A stretch of DNA of 64,000 nucleotides. Origin: a candidate division WOR-3 bacterium (GTDB lineage Bacteria > Hydrothermota > Tepidihabitantia > Tepidihabitantales > Tepidihabitantaceae). Location of the stretch: positions 32,001 through 96,000 of the forward strand of contig CBFGJV010000002.1 of the NCBI GenBank assembly GCA_965649205.1, given 5' to 3'. The stretch's first letter is position 1, and each line of letters begins with the position of its first letter. The translations under genes and the position numbers were made by a program. Of the stretch, positions 1 to 8,462 are shown piece after piece. The notes under the pieces are model-generated. The model saw only the letters and a list, made by a program, of their open reading frames with translations, had not been told where the DNA came from and searched no databases.

Positions 1-330
1 ATAACTCTCGCCGACACGATAGCGCCACTCAAAACTGAAATAGTAACGGTGAACGGTTCGAAGATGCTTAAAATCAGTGGCAACGCACCGGACAAAGTTA
101 ACTGGCTAGGCATTTCTTTCTACAAGGAGAAATACGTTGATGCGGTGCTGGACGGCGAGTACCAGATGCTTTCCCTCCCCCGCGGCAGGTTTTCGCAGAC
201 CATTCCCATACCTAAGGGTTACGAAACCGGCTCCTACGAAGTTGCGGTGTGGCAGAAGGTTATTTCCCGGAAGCGGGTATTCCGGCTGGGTACTCAGCTG
301 GCATACAAAGAAGGCAAGATTGGAGAGTAA
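1..330 (+). CDS. Hypothetical protein, 5'-truncated by the window edge; first visible gene of the PqqD/ATP-grasp operon
   Basis: Frame 1 is open from base 1 (ITLADTIAPLKTEIVTVNGSK...) to TAA at 328-330; the next gene starts 3 nt later. Confidence 0.6.
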   Translation: MTLADTIAPLKTEIVTVNGSKMLKISGNAPDKVNWLGISFYKEKYVDAVLDGEYQMLSLPRGRFSQTIPIPKGYETGSYEVAVWQKVISRKRVFRLGTQLAYKEGKIGE

Positions 331-333
331 AAC

Positions 334-591
334 GTGGCACAGAGACAATCAAAATTGAAGAGTTTGTATTTGTCCGATAGTGGTTTCTTGTTCGATCCCT
401 ACACCGGTCTGACCTATGGTTTGAACGAGACCGGGGCGACCATTCTGCGGTGGTTGCGTGAGGGACTGGACAAGAGTTCGGTTGCGAAGAAGTTGACCGA
501 AGAGTTCGACGTACCGCTAGAAACCGCCCAAGCGGATGTTGAGGAGTTCTACGACCGGTTACAGCAACAGGGGCTGCTATGGACAAGATAG
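334..591 (+). CDS. PqqD-family / RiPP recognition element (RRE) protein
   Basis: 85 aa with the PqqD pattern LFDPxTGxxYxLNETGAxIxxxL...L.EEFDV..E.A..DV.EF...L...GLL; GGAG upstream of GTG. Confidence 0.85.
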   Translation: MAQRQSKLKSLYLSDSGFLFDPYTGLTYGLNETGATILRWLREGLDKSSVAKKLTEEFDVPLETAQADVEEFYDRLQQQGLLWTR

Positions 592-1631
592 ATTTTGCCG
601 TTACTGGTCTGCACGCAACGGACAATCCTGCTCCGGGGATAGCGGTAATACGTGCGATTCGTTCAGCGCCGCAGTGGCAGGGTAAGGTCGTGGGCTTGGC
701 ATATGATGCATTGGACACAGGTATTTACGACCCGGAGTTATGCGACCGGGTTTTCTTGATTCCTTATGCGACCGAGGGTGAACGAGCACTTCTGGCCCGG
801 TTGGAATACATCTATAGCGTTCAGCCGTTCTCGGTCTTGATCCCGACGCTCGATGCTGAACTCACCGGTTTCATCCGTCTGCGGCACGAACTTGAGCCTA
901 TGGGCATTCGCATGCTCCTGCCTACTGAGGAACAACTGGGTCTGCGGTCCAAGCAGAGGCTGGGCGATTTTGCCCACAGTCACGGTATACCCTTTCTCGC
1001 GACGCTTACTGTTACCACGCCGGAGATGCTCGCTGACGCGATGGAAAAACTCGGCACGCCAGTAGTAGTGAAGGGTTGTTTCTACGAGGCGCAGGTGTGC
1101 TATACGTTTGAACACGCCCAGACCGCATTTGCTTCTATTGCCGCCCGCTGGGGCCTGCCGGCGCTGTGCCAGGCTCACTTGTCCGGGGAGGAGTATGACG
1201 TATGCGCGCTCGGTGACAAGAAAGGAAAATTAAACGGAGCTGTGGCGATGCGTAAACTAAGACTCACCGACAAGGGCAAGGCTTGGGCAGGAATAACTGT
1301 GTGCGACGAAGAACTGCTTGACTTGACCCGAACAGTGGTTGAGGGACTCAACTGGACTGGGCCGATGGAGATTGAGTTCATTCGCTCCACTGCCGATGGC
1401 CGATTCCACCTGTTTGAGATTAACCCGCGATTTCCGGCTTGGTGTTACCTCACTGCGGGTGCGGGGCTCAATCTGCCTTACCGCTATCTCCAGCTGGCTC
1501 AGGACCGTGAGGTTCAACCCTCATTGGAGTATCGGCCCGGCACTATATTCGTCCGACACGCAACCGATATAATATGTCCGCTCGACATTCTGGAATCTTT
1601 GACTACTAAAGGCGAGGTGAAACGTGGCTAG
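579..1631 (+). CDS. ATP-grasp ligase (carbamoyl-phosphate synthase-like single ATP-grasp)
   Basis: Motifs IPTLDAEL, PVVVKG, GEEYDV, EIEF and FEINPRFP; overlaps the PqqD gene. Confidence 0.85.
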   Translation: MDKIDFAVTGLHATDNPAPGIAVIRAIRSAPQWQGKVVGLAYDALDTGIYDPELCDRVFLIPYATEGERALLARLEYIYSVQPFSVLIPTLDAELTGFIRLRHELEPMGIRMLLPTEEQLGLRSKQRLGDFAHSHGIPFLATLTVTTPEMLADAMEKLGTPVVVKGCFYEAQVCYTFEHAQTAFASIAARWGLPALCQAHLSGEEYDVCALGDKKGKLNGAVAMRKLRLTDKGKAWAGITVCDEELLDLTRTVVEGLNWTGPMEIEFIRSTADGRFHLFEINPRFPAWCYLTAGAGLNLPYRYLQLAQDREVQPSLEYRPGTIFVRHATDIICPLDILESLTTKGEVKRG

Positions 1632-3003
1632 ACAGCAGGAAAAAGTCAGAAAGACTTACAGCAAACCCTCCATTGCGCGGCACACGGTCAGTCTGATGGG
1701 CAAGCCGGGAATGGGCAAGCCTGGACGGGTTCCCGGCATTTCCACCGTAAAGCAGTTTGAGGGCCACCAGGTAGCGGAACTGGTTACCAAGTTTGGCTCA
1801 CCACTCTTTGTGGGTTCAGAACGGATACTGCGCGAACGGTATCAGAAACTGTATCGGGCGTTCTCAACCAGATATCCCAATTTTCAAGTAGCCTGGTCAT
1901 ATAAGACCAATTACCTGAAGGCAGTATGCAGTCTGTACCACAAACTGGGCGCCTGGGCCGAGGTAGTTTCCGGATTTGAGTACGAGTTGGCTCGTCGATT
2001 GGGTCGTCCTGGGCCGGAGATAATCTTCAACGGTCCGTATAAGGACGAGGCTGAACTGGAGCGGGCATTCCGGGACGGCGCCTTAGTGCACGCCGACAAT
2101 CACGATGAGTTGAGTCGTATGGAGATGGTGGCGGGTCGCACAGGTATGGAGCCCCAGATTGGGATTCGGGTTAATCTAGACTGCGGCATGTATCCACCTT
2201 GGAGCCGGTTCGGCTTCAATCTGGAATCTGGCGAGGCGTTCCAAGCCGCGCGCCGTATCAAAAATTCACCCCGGCTGAAACTGGTCGGTTTGCACTGTCA
2301 CATCGGCACGTTCATCCTTGATCCCGAGCTGTATCGCCGGGCCAGCGCTAAACTTGCTAATTTTGCCCGCGCCCTTGAAGCTGAATTGGGAATAGAGGTA
2401 AAATATCTAGACCTCGGCGGCGGGTTCTGCTCCGAGAATACGTTGCACACCCAGTGGTTGCCGGGCACTCAGGCCAATCCGACTATTGACCAGTTTGCTG
2501 AGGCAGTGACCGGTCCCTTGATGGAAATTGACTACCCTCCCGACAAGAGGCCATTGCTTATCACCGAGCCGGGCCGGGCGCTGGTGGACGATGGATTTGT
2601 CCTTATTTCTACTGTCGTAGCAGGGAGGCGCATGCCCGACGGCAGACCCAGTATTGTGATTGACGCAGGCGTGAACATCCTATTTACCTCTTTCTGGTAT
2701 AAGCATGAGGTAGCACCGGACAGCGACAGTAGTTTCATTTCCGAATTGACTGCAGTGTACGGGCCGCTGTGTATGAACATTGACCTGGTTCATCCCGCAG
2801 CCCTTCTGCCTCCTCTTTCTTTGGGAACGCACCTGGTGTTTCGGCATGTTGGCGCGTACAATATGACCCAGTGGATGCAGTTTATTCGGCTGCGACCCGC
2901 GGTAGTGATGGTGATGCAGGACGGCTCGGTTGAGATACTGCGCGAGGCTGAGACCGTCGACTACGTACAGGAACTGGAGCGCGTTCCGGAATTACTCCGG
3001 TGA
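1624..3003 (+). CDS. PLP-dependent fold-type III decarboxylase (diaminopimelate decarboxylase-like) with N-terminal extension
   Basis: YKTN (PLP lysine), EVVSGFE, FNGPYK, HCHIGT, DLGGGF, EPGRAL, GPLCMNID, GAY. Confidence 0.85.
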   Translation: MARQQEKVRKTYSKPSIARHTVSLMGKPGMGKPGRVPGISTVKQFEGHQVAELVTKFGSPLFVGSERILRERYQKLYRAFSTRYPNFQVAWSYKTNYLKAVCSLYHKLGAWAEVVSGFEYELARRLGRPGPEIIFNGPYKDEAELERAFRDGALVHADNHDELSRMEMVAGRTGMEPQIGIRVNLDCGMYPPWSRFGFNLESGEAFQAARRIKNSPRLKLVGLHCHIGTFILDPELYRRASAKLANFARALEAELGIEVKYLDLGGGFCSENTLHTQWLPGTQANPTIDQFAEAVTGPLMEIDYPPDKRPLLITEPGRALVDDGFVLISTVVAGRRMPDGRPSIVIDAGVNILFTSFWYKHEVAPDSDSSFISELTAVYGPLCMNIDLVHPAALLPPLSLGTHLVFRHVGAYNMTQWMQFIRLRPAVVMVMQDGSVEILREAETVDYVQELERVPELLR

Positions 3004-3016
3004 TGCCGTAGTGTCA

Positions 3017-4555
3017 ATGGCGTTGGCGGAAGTATTCCGGCTTGGCCGGCGTCTAGTTCGGGTCACGCTTGTCTCTTACGCCCAAGTACTCTTCTCCAGC
3101 CGGCCCGCTGCGGGGTGTTTCTTTCTTGCCGCTTCTTTTGTCTTTGACCCTTTGGTCGGTGCAACAGGACTGGTAGCAGCCATTTCCGCAAATTTGGCCG
3201 GGCTTGGGCTCTGGCATGACCGGGTTCGCTGGGAACTGGGCCTGGCCGGGTACAACGGGGTTTTACTGGGATTAGCCCTGGGCTTACTTTTGCCGCACAG
3301 CCGCCTCGTGTTTCTTCTGGCAGTTGTCGGCGGAGTAGTCTCTGCCGTGGCCACCGAGAGGCTGTATCATAGCCTCCGGCGCTGGAACTTGCCCGTGCTG
3401 GGCCTGCCTTTTCTTTTCTTTGCGTGGCTGATGTTCGCCGCTGTGCCCGATGGCGCCGTCCCTCGTTCACCCTTGCTTGACCTGCCAGTACCTGGCATCG
3501 CGGCCGAAACACTCAAGGCGTTCGGCGCAACATTTTTTTCTCCTGGTGTTCTGTCCGGCGCTCTCGTTCTGGCTGGCTTGTTTATTGCTTCGCGCATCAG
3601 CTCCGCTGCCGGATTGGCCGGTGCCCTGCTGGCTGTGGTCGTGGGCCTGTTTCGGCCCTCATCCGTGACGTTGTCTCTGAATTTGATAATAACTTCGGTT
3701 GGCCTATCCTTCTTCCTTGCGCCACGCTTGCGGGCCATATGGCAGGTACTTATGGGAATGTTTCTAACACTTGGACTGGTGCTGGTGATGGAACCCGCGG
3801 CTAGAGCAGTACGCTTGCCTTTACTGATATTACCTCTCACTTGTACCCTGTTTCTGTTTCTGCTCCTTGGCCGATGGCCACGCTCGGGCGTGAGGTTAGT
3901 ACCTATCCGATTACTCAGCAATCCGGAGGAACATCTACGCATCTACCGGAATTACGTTCCCGTAGCTCTTCGCCTTCCTTTTTGGGGCACCTGGTATGTG
4001 AGTCAGGGCATACGTGGTAAAGAGACACACAAAGGCCGATTGGCTTATGCGTGGGACTTCCAGGTGCAGGATGAACGCGGCCGTACCTTTCAGACTCCCG
4101 GGTATAGACTGAGCGATTATTACGCATTTGGGCTTCCGGTGTGCGCGCCGGCTCCGGGTCGGGTGGTAGCCGTAGAAAATGAAATACCGGACAATCCGCC
4201 TGGCAAATTAAACAAAGAGAAAAATTGGGGCAACTACGTAGTGATAGAACACAACGCTGTGGAGTATTCAATTCTTGCTCACCTGCAACAGGGGTCGGTA
4301 AAGGTGAAGAAGGGCGACAAAGTGGCCGCGGGCACGGTTATCGGACTGTGCGGCAACTCCGGATATTCCGGCCAGCCGCACTTACACTACCAACTGCAGG
4401 ACGGCCCAATACCAGGTAGTGATACGTTGGCGACGGAATTTCACAATTACTTGGTGCTGGAACGCGGGCAAGAACGTTTCGTGCCCCGCGGCCGGACGCG
4501 AGAGGGAGAAGTGGTTAGGCCAGCATCGCCTTCTGAAATGCGAGCCGCGTTATGA
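3017..4555 (+). CDS. Urea transporter (UT) family membrane domain fused to a C-terminal M23 metallopeptidase
   Basis: About 10 hydrophobic segments with SYAQVLFS and GLAGYNGVLLGL (UT-like); C-terminal TH...AWDF, APAPGRVV, WGNYVVIEH, GNSGYS..PHLHYQ (M23). Start taken at ATG 3017 rather than the ORF-track 2930. Confidence 0.8.
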   Translation: MALAEVFRLGRRLVRVTLVSYAQVLFSSRPAAGCFFLAASFVFDPLVGATGLVAAISANLAGLGLWHDRVRWELGLAGYNGVLLGLALGLLLPHSRLVFLLAVVGGVVSAVATERLYHSLRRWNLPVLGLPFLFFAWLMFAAVPDGAVPRSPLLDLPVPGIAAETLKAFGATFFSPGVLSGALVLAGLFIASRISSAAGLAGALLAVVVGLFRPSSVTLSLNLIITSVGLSFFLAPRLRAIWQVLMGMFLTLGLVLVMEPAARAVRLPLLILPLTCTLFLFLLLGRWPRSGVRLVPIRLLSNPEEHLRIYRNYVPVALRLPFWGTWYVSQGIRGKETHKGRLAYAWDFQVQDERGRTFQTPGYRLSDYYAFGLPVCAPAPGRVVAVENEIPDNPPGKLNKEKNWGNYVVIEHNAVEYSILAHLQQGSVKVKKGDKVAAGTVIGLCGNSGYSGQPHLHYQLQDGPIPGSDTLATEFHNYLVLERGQERFVPRGRTREGEVVRPASPSEMRAAL

Positions 4556-5544
4556 GCCTGCTGATTGTTCTACTGTTTTTTGCGCGGACCGAGTCAGGGG
4601 AACTGAGTTCTGAATACTTGGCTGCTATCAGACGCGCAGACAGTCTGTACTGGGCCGGCCGGTACCAGGCGGCCCTGATTGCTTACGAAACCGCGCAAAA
4701 TATTCTGCCCGACGAACCTGGGCCCCAGGTTGGTATCGGCTGGACTCTGTTGCGCATGTCTGAGTACGCGCGTGCCGAAGAGGTTCTGCGCCGGGTGCTT
4801 GAGCTTCACCCGGACAACGAACAAGCCCGCAGGGGCCTCGCGCTTCTGCCTTTGTTCTACCGCGTCAGGTTGACGGCTACGCTGACCGGCAGTTCTGACG
4901 CGGCGCGCATCCTGGCTGGTTTCCTTGAGTACAACCACCTATTTCGGACAACTTTCACCGTTGGCGTCCAGAACATCTCCTTACGCGGCGGCTGGAACGG
5001 AATGAACGCCGCGCTGGTTGTTTTTCACCGTTTGCGTTATCCCTGGTCTGTTCGGCTCGACGTTTTTCTCTTGGCCTCAACCAGCGACCGTGCTTATCGC
5101 AGATACGTCTACGCGCCTTCCTTAGGATATCGTTGGCGCGAATGGAATACACGCGCCGTTTGCTTCGGCTGGGACCGGCTGGGCACGGTTGGCCTACAAC
5201 TAGACATCCAGCATCCCCTGCCGTTTGGCCTGGACTTCCACGCCACGCCGACGCTTAACCGTTCGGGTGATTCTCTGGGGTGGTTCATTCCCGCCTCGGT
5301 CAGCCGGCAGCTGACGCCCTATCTGCGCACTCAGGCCATGGCCGGCTGGGGCTCCATTGCGGATTACATTGACCTTGATGTACCAGCGCTCTACAACCAG
5401 TGGGAACGCTTCACGGCGACTGCCCGGCTTGGGGCCGATGCTACCATTGTCCGCAGGTTCCGTCTCGCCGCCTTCGTCACTTGGGAGAAATACAGCACTT
5501 CCCATAGTATTTTCCTTTCTTTTGTCCTTTCGGCTCGTTTCTAG
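4552..5544 (+). CDS. Exported TPR protein with probable C-terminal outer-membrane beta-barrel
   Basis: Short hydrophobic N-terminus, TPR-like helices (GRYQAALIAYE...EYARAEEVLRRVLELHPDNEQA), alternating beta strands, terminal Phe; ATGA coupling to the upstream gene. Confidence 0.65.
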   Translation: MSLLIVLLFFARTESGELSSEYLAAIRRADSLYWAGRYQAALIAYETAQNILPDEPGPQVGIGWTLLRMSEYARAEEVLRRVLELHPDNEQARRGLALLPLFYRVRLTATLTGSSDAARILAGFLEYNHLFRTTFTVGVQNISLRGGWNGMNAALVVFHRLRYPWSVRLDVFLLASTSDRAYRRYVYAPSLGYRWREWNTRAVCFGWDRLGTVGLQLDIQHPLPFGLDFHATPTLNRSGDSLGWFIPASVSRQLTPYLRTQAMAGWGSIADYIDLDVPALYNQWERFTATARLGADATIVRRFRLAAFVTWEKYSTSHSIFLSFVLSARF

Positions 5545-5612: not shown

Positions 5613-8462
5613 TTAGAACTTCACTACCTTCTGTCGGTAACCAGCCTCGCCTGTTTCCAGACGGATAAAGTATACGCCGGGAGCAACGTTGCGTGTGTTC
5701 CAGAGTAGTTTATGTTGTCCTGCCGGTCTAGCCTCGTCGGTTAGACACTCTACTTCGCGTCCGGCTGCGTCCAGAACCGAGATACGCACCCGGCCAGCTT
5801 TGGTCAGTTGGTAGTTTATTCCTGTCTGGCTAGCAAAAGGATTAGGTTTTACTGCCAGTACGATTTCTTTTGCTTCGGCGGGCGTGCGGGGTCCGGCCAG
5901 ACCTACATTGCGGTCATACCAGGACTGGGCCGAATCGGCGTTCTGGCGAATTTCACTTCCGCTAGTTCCACCAACAAAGGCGATGGCGAAATGCTGACGT
6001 GCGCCAGGTGACAGATTGAAGGGGCCGGAGGAAACGCATATAGACCAGTCGTAGGCTCGGTTGGAATTAGGCTGGCTGATGGTTCCGTTCAGAAACCTCC
6101 ACTTCTGGCCGTCGGTCATACAGGAGTCTGGATAAACATAACGAGCGTGGTCAATTGCGGCTGTCCGAGCGCCGGTGGTGGGAGAAAGTATTTTGACTCC
6201 AACTGAAGGATTGGCACTGGTAGATGGTCGCATGAAGGCAAGTCTGCGGGACACATCGCTGGAGCAGATGTTGGCTGTGGCTGTACCGATGTCAAAGTCC
6301 GCGATTATGCCGGCGTACATGCCGTTGACCGCAGAAGAGCCATTGTTGGTAATGTCGAAAGTCATTACCACGAAGTCATCGTAACCCGGCGAAGCTACTT
6401 GATAACTTTGCTGGGTGACGACTATGCCCTTGGCTGCGGGATGTCCGGCATCAGAATACGAGCCGCGGAAATGCTGGTCTGCGCCATTAGCCGGAGGCAT
6501 GACCGGCCGCAAACTTTCTTGCGGCATCAGGTCTTGATTAGGCGCGCCCGAGGCAGGGCGGCTGAAGAAACGGTCGGCCAGATATGTTTCGCTGTTGCCC
6601 ATGGCAAAGCTGCTGTAGAACAGCTGGCTGGCACCGGTTTTGGGATAACAGAAGCCAGCGCCAGCATCCAGTCCGGGTGGTACATCATAGCCGATAGAAC
6701 CCTGACAGGACACGGTGAGCTTGCAGTAACCGGTGTCATGGGTCATAAGCAGTTCACCCTGTACCGGCGGCTGACCTACTACCAGGCTGAAGGTGGTTGT
6801 GAAGGTGGTCTCATCGCAGACAAGGAAGAGGCTGAAAGGCACGCTTCTGCCTTCCGGACAGTTACCAGCAACAAGCAGACCGAAAAGGTCCCCGCTGTTA
6901 TTTGCACTGTCGCGGCCGGCTATGTTACCGAAGTTTGCGGTGGAATCGGTCAGAACCAGATAGGGATCAGAGGTGCGCAAGGTGCCGCGCACATTCGTCG
7001 CTCCCACAGTGGAGAAGTTACGCAGATATGCGACTAGGTTAGCGTTTTCGCCAGGATCCAGCCTGCCGTTGCCATTTCCGTCATTGATAACGCGCGTACG
7101 GGAAAGAGAAAGCAAGGGTTGGGTAGCAGAGCCGGTGCGGTCCAGTGCGGCTTTGCAGTTGAGTCTGCCCCAGCCGTAATTGTTGTTGGGATAAGGTGCG
7201 CCGCCAGAGGGTCTGTCGGCCCAGTCGGTGAGCAGTACGAAGATTTCGTCGTGGGTGAGGGTAGGTTTTTTCTGTAGGAGCAGAGCGGCTGCGCCGGCCA
7301 CGTGCGGGCAGGCCATGGAAGTTCCATCCATGGTGGTGTAACCGCCACCCCGGGTGGCAGAACGTACACCTGAGCCCGGAGCTGCAATGCTCGGGTTTAT
7401 CAGGTTCCAATCTGACCTTGGCCAGTAACGAGTTTCATTCCAGGGTGACTGATTCAGGGCCGGGCCGCGCGAAGAGAAACTGGAAATAGCGTCGGTGCTG
7501 GTGGTGGAGCCTACGCCTATCATTATGGGATACGATCCCGGCGGGTTGGAAGTATTCGGATTCGGTCCGGAGTTGCCAATGGACGCAACGCAGACAATAC
7601 CCAAACTGCGCAGATTGTTGAAAGCGTTGAACCAGGCAGTAGTTGTTCTATCTCCAGAGCCCCAGGAGTTAGAAATAACCTGAGGTCGACCTGTTCCGGC
7701 CATCCAGTCCAGACAGGCAGAAATCCAGCTTGACTGTCCACTTCCGGAAGAATTGAAAGCCTTGGCGCAGATAAAGGTGGCGCCTGGGGCCACACCGATG
7801 TCATCTACGGCCGGACCAAGACCATCGCCTCCGCAAATGGTGCCCATCGTGTGGGTCCCATGGCCGTTGTCGTCGTAGGGGCTGGCCTGCCCGTTTACAG
7901 CGTCGAACCAACCATTAGTGGAACGCCAGCGGCCTTGGAAAGCCGGATGACTCACTTCTACACCAGTGTCCACATTTCCTACCACGACGCCGGTACCGTC
8001 AATGCCTACGGCCCAGCAGGAGTCGGCTTTCACCTTGCTGATATTCCAGCCGGGTGCGTCCGGCTCGCTGGAAGGTACGGGGTCATCGAGCTGGACGATG
8101 AAATCGTCCATTACATACTCCACGTCCTCACGCGCAGCCAGGGCGCGGATTATATCCGGGGTGGCAGAGAGGGCGATTTTGCTTTCCAGCCAGAAACTGC
8201 GGATATTCGCCGCGTCGGTCTGGGCTAGAAAGGCAAGAATGCCTCGCTGTGCCTCCTGGGCGATACGTTGTAGATACTCAATTTTCTCGTCGTAGGTAGC
8301 ACTCGGTCCGAGCTTGTTCAGGTCAGCCTGCAGAGCGGTTTTGACTACTATGTCAATTTTCTGGTCCGGTTGTGCCGAAGCGAGTATTTGCTCCAGTTCC
8401 GGCACAATCGTCCCGCCGAACGCCATGGCGCATAGCGCCAGGCACACTACTAAATGCCTCAC
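5613..8462 (-). CDS. Secreted S8 (subtilisin-like) serine peptidase with propeptide and T9SS/FlgD-type C-terminal domain
   Basis: Signal peptide; triad motifs VDTG, HGTHTMG, GTSMACPHVAG; C-terminal PNPF...DAAGR...PGVYF; AGGAGG RBS. Confidence 0.9.
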   Translation of the reverse strand: MRHLVVCLALCAMAFGGTIVPELEQILASAQPDQKIDIVVKTALQADLNKLGPSATYDEKIEYLQRIAQEAQRGILAFLAQTDAANIRSFWLESKIALSATPDIIRALAAREDVEYVMDDFIVQLDDPVPSSEPDAPGWNISKVKADSCWAVGIDGTGVVVGNVDTGVEVSHPAFQGRWRSTNGWFDAVNGQASPYDDNGHGTHTMGTICGGDGLGPAVDDIGVAPGATFICAKAFNSSGSGQSSWISACLDWMAGTGRPQVISNSWGSGDRTTTAWFNAFNNLRSLGIVCVASIGNSGPNPNTSNPPGSYPIMIGVGSTTSTDAISSFSSRGPALNQSPWNETRYWPRSDWNLINPSIAAPGSGVRSATRGGGYTTMDGTSMACPHVAGAAALLLQKKPTLTHDEIFVLLTDWADRPSGGAPYPNNNYGWGRLNCKAALDRTGSATQPLLSLSRTRVINDGNGNGRLDPGENANLVAYLRNFSTVGATNVRGTLRTSDPYLVLTDSTANFGNIAGRDSANNSGDLFGLLVAGNCPEGRSVPFSLFLVCDETTFTTTFSLVVGQPPVQGELLMTHDTGYCKLTVSCQGSIGYDVPPGLDAGAGFCYPKTGASQLFYSSFAMGNSETYLADRFFSRPASGAPNQDLMPQESLRPVMPPANGADQHFRGSYSDAGHPAAKGIVVTQQSYQVASPGYDDFVVMTFDITNNGSSAVNGMYAGIIADFDIGTATANICSSDVSRRLAFMRPSTSANPSVGVKILSPTTGARTAAIDHARYVYPDSCMTDGQKWRFLNGTISQPNSNRAYDWSICVSSGPFNLSPGARQHFAIAFVGGTSGSEIRQNADSAQSWYDRNVGLAGPRTPAEAKEIVLAVKPNPFASQTGINYQLTKAGRVRISVLDAAGREVECLTDEARPAGQHKLLWNTRNVAPGVYFIRLETGEAGYRQKVVKF

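Follow-up and report, generated by a model that had tools for sequence, protein, structure and literature searches.

The N-terminal tail of a PLP-dependent decarboxylase as a conserved, probable docking site for a PqqD-type recognition element and a possible lysine carrier

What does a recognition element for peptides made on the ribosome and modified after translation (RiPPs) bind when no precursor peptide is encoded beside it? Genes of RiPP recognition elements (RREs) mark clusters for peptide natural products, and for many of these genes no precursor has been identified (PMC12710340). The question is raised by a window of 64,000 nucleotides (nt) of a WOR-3 bacterium (Hydrothermota; assembly GCA_965649205.1, contig CBFGJV010000002.1, positions 32,001-96,000 of the forward strand), the whole stretch of DNA analysed and the frame of all coordinates below, in which a domain profile search shows the gene order PqqD/RRE, ATP-grasp ligase, pyridoxal 5'-phosphate (PLP) dependent decarboxylase, urea-channel-M23 peptidase fusion and tetratricopeptide repeat (TPR) protein. 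Our data give good support for the N-terminal tail of the decarboxylase being a real, conserved, built-in docking site for the RRE, and a lysine of this tail would serve as a carrier; whether the first 40 residues are leader and carrier at once, built into the enzyme, we regard as an evenly balanced matter.

The decarboxylase is encoded on the forward strand at 1624-3003 (459 amino acids, aa) and its N-terminus reads MARQQEKVRKTYSKPSIARHTVSLMGKPGMGKPG. An earlier note on this DNA had placed a YSKPSI motif in the N-terminal tail of the enzyme, and translation of bases 1657-1674 confirms it, giving a YxxPx-hydrophobic RRE recognition motif with Y12, P15 and I17 in a region predicted to be disordered. 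The start codon lies upstream of the motif: GTG at 1624 is the earliest possible start, the in-frame stop TGA occupying 1618-1620, and the frame overlaps the stop codon of the ATP-grasp gene at 1629-1631. The initiation region at 1614-1626 (forward strand) comprises a ribosome-binding site GAGGTG (1614-1619), the TGA and the GTG. An in-frame stop is found at most 15 codons 5' of the tyrosine in 50 of 76 homologous loci and the commonest start lies 4-6 codons before it in 69 of 75, so that the motif falls within the translated frame. In an AlphaFold2 monomer model built on 39 sequences the predicted local distance difference test (pLDDT) stays below 50 at residues 1-3, 8-10 and 12-37 and reaches about 95 from position 41 onwards, i.e. 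the tail (residues 1-40; 1624-1743) is predicted to be unfolded in the monomer and to be followed from about residue 41 by the folded core of a fold-type III PLP decarboxylase (1744-3003; PF02784/PF00278). A match to [YW]xxPx[LIVFA] occurs within the first 25 residues in 20 of 1297 long open reading frames (ORFs) of the window's genome, and a similar motif plus a lysine at +15 within the first 45 residues in 3 of 1297. A single motif is by itself weak evidence, its weight coming from conservation in 275 of 275 homologues.

This conservation is seen in 289 loci of the family, which gave 286 tails (three being cut at the 5' end), 275 of them distinct. Counting from the motif tyrosine as position 0, this position is Tyr in 255, Phe in 18 and Trp in two members, position +3 is Pro in all 275, and +5 is Ile (232), Leu (32), Val (8) or Phe (3). 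Lysine stands at +15 in 275 of 275 tails and is never replaced by arginine; in the window it is K27 (1702-1704), the proposed acylation (carrier) site. Elsewhere in the tail Lys and Arg interchange (56 Lys/190 Arg at +2, 95/24 at +6, 163/81 at +7), the residues between motif and lysine vary with an entropy of 2-3 bits per position, and the stretch preceding the tyrosine differs in length between close relatives, with 3 to 23 residues. The tail is conserved across several phyla although it is predicted to be disordered. In the window the sequence MGKPG around the lysine appears twice by a 15-nt tandem duplication (1696-1725, one synonymous difference) private to this genome, the first copy keeping the lysine at +15; a reading of the doubled sequence as multiple cores was ruled out, as locus L111 and the 14 closest proteins (P0122-P0135, 73-81% identical) carry a single copy. 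In loci L043 and L186 a stop or frameshift breaks the decarboxylase gene in two, the upstream part retaining the whole tail; these are assembly errors or pseudogenes. Protein P0232, considered as a fusion of ligase and decarboxylase, is probably a frameshift artefact.

The tail and the PqqD gene go together. Among genome loci whose flank spans at least 1600 nt, 67 of 67 have PqqD immediately 5' and in the same orientation; overall, loci with a flank of at least 1700 nt contain it in 129 of 129 cases. The comparison of N-termini asked for in the earlier note, in which the motif had been expected in PqqD-linked homologues, finds it in every linked tail and in none of the controls. These were 33 distinct unlinked decarboxylases scoring at most 256 bits, one of them cut at its 5' end, of which 16 were inspected by pattern with flanks of 1.5 kb and 23 N-termini (six being repeats) by eye, 20 of these with flanks of about 6 kb; they show neither a motif/lysine tail nor a nearby PqqD. 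In the search for a contrast locus with a carrier protein, a weak match to ATP-grasp turned up for one of the unlinked decarboxylases (L246/L312).

How the RRE could recognize this tail is suggested by its closest relatives. The window's PqqD/RRE is a discrete protein of 85 aa (334-591, forward strand; PF05402, 2e-15). A profile built from 51 PqqD sequences finds as its best matches in the PDB the lasso-peptide B1 proteins TbiB1 (1.4e-13) and TfuB1 (7.8e-9), followed by PbaB1 and LppB, with PqqD proper ranking behind. Lasso leaders carry the motif [Y/W]xxPx[L/V/I/F/A], and in LppB D70 forms a hydrogen bond with the leader tyrosine, N33 fixes the kink at the proline and F74 flanks it (PMC13381572). 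N31 (424-426), D68 (535-537) and F72 (547-549) of the window's PqqD align with these three residues, N33, D70 and F74, the LppB numbering being based on an 18-residue tag offset in chain 9x8z_B deduced from seven matching residues. The hydrogen bond in LppB leads to the expectation that the Asp is missing opposite Phe tails, and the 241 distinct tail/PqqD pairs show this: 218 are Tyr-Asp, one Tyr-Glu, two Tyr-Asn and two Trp-Asp, none is Phe-Asp, and the 18 Phe tails face Ser, Tyr, Thr, Val, Asn or His. The 18 Phe tails and both Tyr-Asn pairs make up a single clade of 20, which has a support of 0.991 in a FastTree phylogeny of the decarboxylase core combined with the ATP-grasp enzyme. Among 216 columns conserved to at least 90% outside this set (PqqD 7, decarboxylase 132, ligase 77), just two are lost in at least half of it, namely the Asp of the RRE and the Tyr of the tail; since absence of the Asp served to define the set, the independent observation is the Tyr. 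With a correction for branch rates, the column that co-changes most strongly with the tail Tyr, of 740 compared, is the RRE Asp (two shared branches, p 0.0008). Trp tails (WxxP) occur in L297, L305, P0145 and P0179, and in both loci the RRE Asp is kept, unlike in the Trp-selective PbaB1.

Complex prediction for PqqD with decarboxylase residues 1-42 gave a score of 0.49, the best of three controls reaching 0.01; runs share at least 95% of their contacts and the partner has a pLDDT of at least 55. Of 157 solved pairs 116 attained the mark applied, as did 2 of 215 mismatched ones; at scores of 0.60 or less it was attained by no more than 18 of the 157 and by both mismatches. The pass may stem from similar complexes having been solved, and we take the prediction as weak support for docking. 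Docking is favoured by the kinship to B1 RREs binding YxxP leaders and by the covariation of tail Tyr and RRE Asp, and very probably the RRE binds Y12, P15 and I17 as lasso B1 proteins bind their leaders, D68 holding the tyrosine hydroxyl. The earlier note's reading is supported in part: its docking site gains from kinship and covariation, with weak support from the predicted complex, and of the two roles it had offered, a scaffold for the enzymes or modification of the tail, the latter is the one favoured below.

Is there a separate peptide the RRE could serve instead? The earlier note had seen no precursor ORF in the operon, and this extends beyond the window: none recurs in small-ORF surveys of 80 and 160 loci. 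Short YxxP-like ORFs number 112 in 80 loci and are scattered, unrelated and non-recurrent; clustering of 1839 small ORFs from 160 loci gives a largest cluster of at most nine loci and none inside the cassette. On these grounds we rejected a separate precursor peptide for the loci surveyed. In the window's genome, which has one PqqD, a profile of the tail finds the decarboxylase gene and no other, and in the sets of 401 and 201 genomes its matches are confined to frames of 372-496 aa. Equal-scoring tail matches at opposite ends of one contig (G1099:C1, 3822 and 3735238) are probably an assembly overlap. A gene for a phosphopantetheine carrier protein did not emerge as a recurrent small ORF in 160 loci, PF00550 itself not having been searched. 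The cassette suggests that a leader may form the N-terminal end of an enzyme encoded next to the RRE and thereby be invisible to small-ORF searches, which would be one answer to orphan RREs.

The enzymes of the cassette suggest what may happen to a docked tail. The decarboxylase retains the PLP lysine K94 (1903-1905), the catalytic C383 (2770-2772) and the other PLP motifs. Its nearest solved relative by sequence and fold is FigC/FslC (7kh2), the alignment beginning at residue 42, past the tail; BtrK is a further solved relative (E 1e-20). The loop of the catalytic cysteine reads C-M-N-I-D, lacking an acid after the Cys, with Met in 273 of 273 sequences; FigC has C-M-Q-H-D, and the diaminopimelate (DAP) decarboxylases 2p3e and 1twi have C-E-T/S-x-D. 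The enzyme differs from the DAP decarboxylase LysA by the missing Glu after the catalytic Cys and by a TIGR01048 score of 203.6, below the cut-off of 297.9; to the NCBIfam FslC model NF041039 it scores 236.5 bits, below the cut-off of 500. The Cys loop helps to set specificity, and two enzymes of the FigC clade, BtrK and MccE, have substrates that are tethered, MccE decarboxylating a group attached to a RiPP (PMC7857480).

The ligase (579-1631, forward strand, 350 aa, PRK12767-like) has an invariant E280-x-N282-x-R284 motif, its family members matching PF15632 in 39 of 39 cases and the PylC-like N-terminal domain PF21360 in 12 of 39. PylC acylates the epsilon-amine of lysine. Adjacent ATP-grasp and fold-type III PLP decarboxylase genes with their catalytic residues retained are shared with butirosin (BtrJ/BtrK/BtrI) and closthioamide (CtaD/CtaF/CtaE) biosynthesis. 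There, the BtrJ/CtaD-type ATP-grasp enzyme loads Glu or Asp by its side-chain carboxyl onto a carrier and BtrK/CtaF decarboxylates the carrier-tethered residue, in closthioamide iteratively (PMC7183216). Those systems use the thiol of a carrier protein and a thioester, whereas here an RRE, a lysine-bearing tail and, as we propose, an amide would take their place.

The fourth gene (3017-4555, forward strand) encodes a membrane domain with the fold of a urea transporter (UT; PF03253) and a C-terminal M23 peptidase domain (PF01551). The model of the channel domain covers the whole fold of the D. vulgaris urea transporter (TM-score 0.80 on the target), and the zinc ligands H338, D347, H455 and H457 of the M23 domain are invariant in 45 sequences. 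The C-terminus of the urea transporter, and hence the M23 domain, we take to be cytoplasmic. Bacterial UT-M23 fusions have been noted, with no function assigned to them (PMC12998343). Many UT-M23 proteins (e.g. in L003, L017 and L078) are about 700-750 aa long and have an extra domain after M23, which the window's copy of 512 aa is without.

These features support a model according to which the RRE would grip the YxxPxI motif and present the tail to the ATP-grasp ligase, which would form an amide on the epsilon-amine of K27, most likely via the side-chain carboxyl of Glu or Asp. We lean slightly towards these delivery and ligation steps. The decarboxylase would then remove the free alpha-carboxyl of the tethered residue, leaving an arm, 4-aminobutyryl or beta-alanyl, open to further rounds of extension; the M23 domain at the inner face of the channel-fold protein would cut the amide and regenerate the lysine, and a small amine or oligo-amide would leave through the channel. 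Release by M23 and export are the least supported of these steps. That the tail is modified is suggested by its one invariant lysine (275 Lys, no Arg), and a carrier role is favoured by the presence of both enzymes, the lack of a carrier gene and an amine that is never Arg at a near-fixed distance from the docking site. As a whole, the model amounts to templated biosynthesis without precursor gene or phosphopantetheine carrier, in which an enzyme comes with a RiPP-style leader of its own and a lysine that serves repeatedly as carrier, the lasso-type RRE recruits the ATP-grasp ligase to build an amide chain on this lysine, the enzyme itself decarboxylates it and a channel-fused M23 amidase releases the product for export; this full scheme we put forward tentatively, its chances falling somewhat short of even.

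Several observations weigh against this model or narrow its basis. The Tyr/Asp covariation has one origin, with probably one reversion, and does not represent 18 events; a second independent Tyr-to-Phe change was sought among further genomes, and all 18 Phe tails fall into one clade. Linked and unlinked decarboxylases form a confounded comparison, all linked enzymes belonging to one family (above 530 bits for whole genes, against at most 256), and a search for a natural family member without PqqD found none. Among 119 further database proteins, available without gene context, two have the lysine at +16 rather than +15, and for three the annotated start falls beyond the motif, so that they are without the tail. 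A contact between tail and ligase was looked for by mutual information: the top raw pair was tail +13 with ATP-grasp 285, beside the catalytic Arg (z 9.6; Met occurs with Phe in 96 of 102 cases, Pro with Phe in 0 of 76), but after tree correction it was rejected, with p 0.47 for position 285 and 0.27 for position 227. A pairing of tail +8 with PqqD T27 was likewise lost on tree correction (p 0.73), and for tail +7 with PqqD 26 the signal is weak, at p 0.009 when residues are compared and 0.28 when charge classes are. Because the tail-ligase covariation vanished on tree correction, no direct tie between lysine region and ligase is apparent from the sequences. The closest solved decarboxylase, FigC, works on a free metabolite, and one carrier per enzyme subunit is a low-throughput route to an exported product.

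Of the competing explanations, the likeliest has the RRE as a scaffold tethering the decarboxylase to the ATP-grasp ligase or the channel, the enzymes processing free small molecules as FigA/FigC do, where an acid is ligated to the side chain of ornithine or lysine and then decarboxylated. The invariant lysine would then be a contact residue or substrate mimic and not an acceptor. All evidence for docking applies equally to such a scaffold, which also fits the best solved relative being an N-citrylornithine decarboxylase with the same acid-free loop (C-M-Q-H-D vs C-M-N-I-D) and the lack of tree-corrected covariation between tail and ligase. It leaves unexplained, however, a lysine never replaced by Arg at a near-fixed distance in 275 sequences as well as the intact M23 amidase domain on the channel, and we judge it rather unlikely. 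The FigA/FigC (FslA/FslC) rhizoferrin route resembles the cassette in FigC being the nearest solved decarboxylase; it differs in that no synthetase of the NRPS-independent siderophore (NIS) type is found in the cassette or among recurrent neighbours, the partner here being an ATP-grasp enzyme.

Alternatively, the tail could act as a regulatory switch by which a signal at the channel would control how active the decarboxylase is, K27 being modified once by the RRE-guided ligase (or, as free lysine, plugging the active site) and M23 reversing the modification, with a free amino acid derivative as substrate of the decarboxylase. An invariant lysine next to a docking motif, one tail per enzyme, and a writer (the ligase) sharing the cassette with a candidate eraser (M23) are all in line with regulation. 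We nevertheless hold this to be improbable, as the pairing of ligase and decarboxylase corresponds to reactions known to follow one another on a single tethered substrate (PMC7183216) and no sensor or output gene recurs in the cassette core. That the tail does not dock at all, being a family-specific structural element packing on the decarboxylase dimer with the RRE serving another partner, would suit the confounding of linkage with family membership, a model that is a monomer from 39 sequences, the weak complex score and the single covariation event, but is highly improbable given that the clade loses exactly the pair hydrogen-bonded in RRE-leader crystal structures, that no other partner peptide recurs and that the genome's sole PqqD accompanies its sole tail match.

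The carrier model can be set beside known peptide-based systems. With the lasso B1 RREs (TbiB1, TfuB1/FusB1, PbaB1, LppB) the cassette shares the motif and the Asn/Asp/Phe pocket residues; in lasso and LPP systems the motif sits on a short precursor, whereas here it is part of the N-terminus of a 459-aa enzyme. Neither a B2/LppS leader protease nor a lasso cyclase or kinase was found in the cassette or among its recurrent neighbours, and the genome has a marginal PF13471 match on another contig. The cassette probably works like a lasso B1/leader pair, yet is not a lasso or LPP system because it has no precursor, protease or cyclase. In fosfazinomycin biosynthesis FzmZ is a YxxP-led ribosomal peptide that serves as a temporary scaffold for a small molecule and is then cut away (PMC13622209). 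Being a free 22-mer, FzmZ carries its modification at the C-terminus and contributes residues to the product, whereas here the peptide is fused to the enzyme and would contribute a side chain only. Borosins (OphMA) and other enzyme-fused RiPP precursors unite substrate peptide and modifying enzyme in one polypeptide. In borosins the core is C-terminal, is modified by the fused enzyme and is released; here RRE and ligase are separate and the N-terminal tail would be reused.

Our literature search, which covered mainly open journals, found no paper on the cassette or on an RRE binding the tail of its own enzyme; a table of an RRE or ATP-grasp survey may contain an entry. If the lysine is loaded, RiPP recognition would be joined to carrier-templated chemistry without a carrier protein. 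A function would then also be provided for bacterial UT-M23 fusions and for an orphan family that is common and wrongly annotated as LysA or as alanine racemase. The tail-bearing decarboxylase occurs in hundreds of bacteria.

The same cassette order is present in the best 80 of 582 genome matches and the best 80 of 591 metagenome matches. Loci L001-L080 comprise 69 from Bacteroidota, seven from Ignavibacteriota, one from Chlorobiota and three unassigned. The decarboxylase family has members in 13 of 272 genomes from the phylum to which the window belongs, in 46 of 401 genomes in the phylum of genome G272 and in 21 of 87 in that of G273; in two overlapping sets of genomes, around G276 and G275, the tail profile has matches in 31 of 401 and in 30 of 201. 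A search for the family on plasmids returned distant enzymes only.

The last cassette gene in the window (4552-5544, forward strand) encodes a TPR protein recognized by domain search, with a hydrophobic N-terminus and a C-terminal region without family assignment; two clusters of TPR-type genes follow the cassette core in 104 and 102 of 160 loci. At the opposite end, 3 nt 5' of pqqD, the window begins with the 3' end (1-330, forward strand) of a 270-aa ORF whose start lies 482 nt upstream of the window (contig coordinates 31518-32330), having a hydrophobic N-terminus and an internal repeat; its in-window part has no match in Pfam. This ORF also precedes the cassette in L110, L111 and, weakly, L311, the other loci examined being without it, and it appears from gene context to be a lineage-specific addition as first gene. 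In 30 of 160 loci, L056 (786-1403) being an example, the cassette has just 5' of it a different recurrent gene of about 200 aa, whose start resembles a metal-binding domain and whose product is possibly a regulator. In L078 an IF-2B-family gene (PF01008; 8358-9179) stands between the decarboxylase and UT-M23 genes and is a possible clue to the chemistry. In the window, an S8 subtilase with a C-terminal Por_Secre_tail/FlgD-like domain (5613-8462, reverse strand) converges on the cassette and is apparently unrelated to it.

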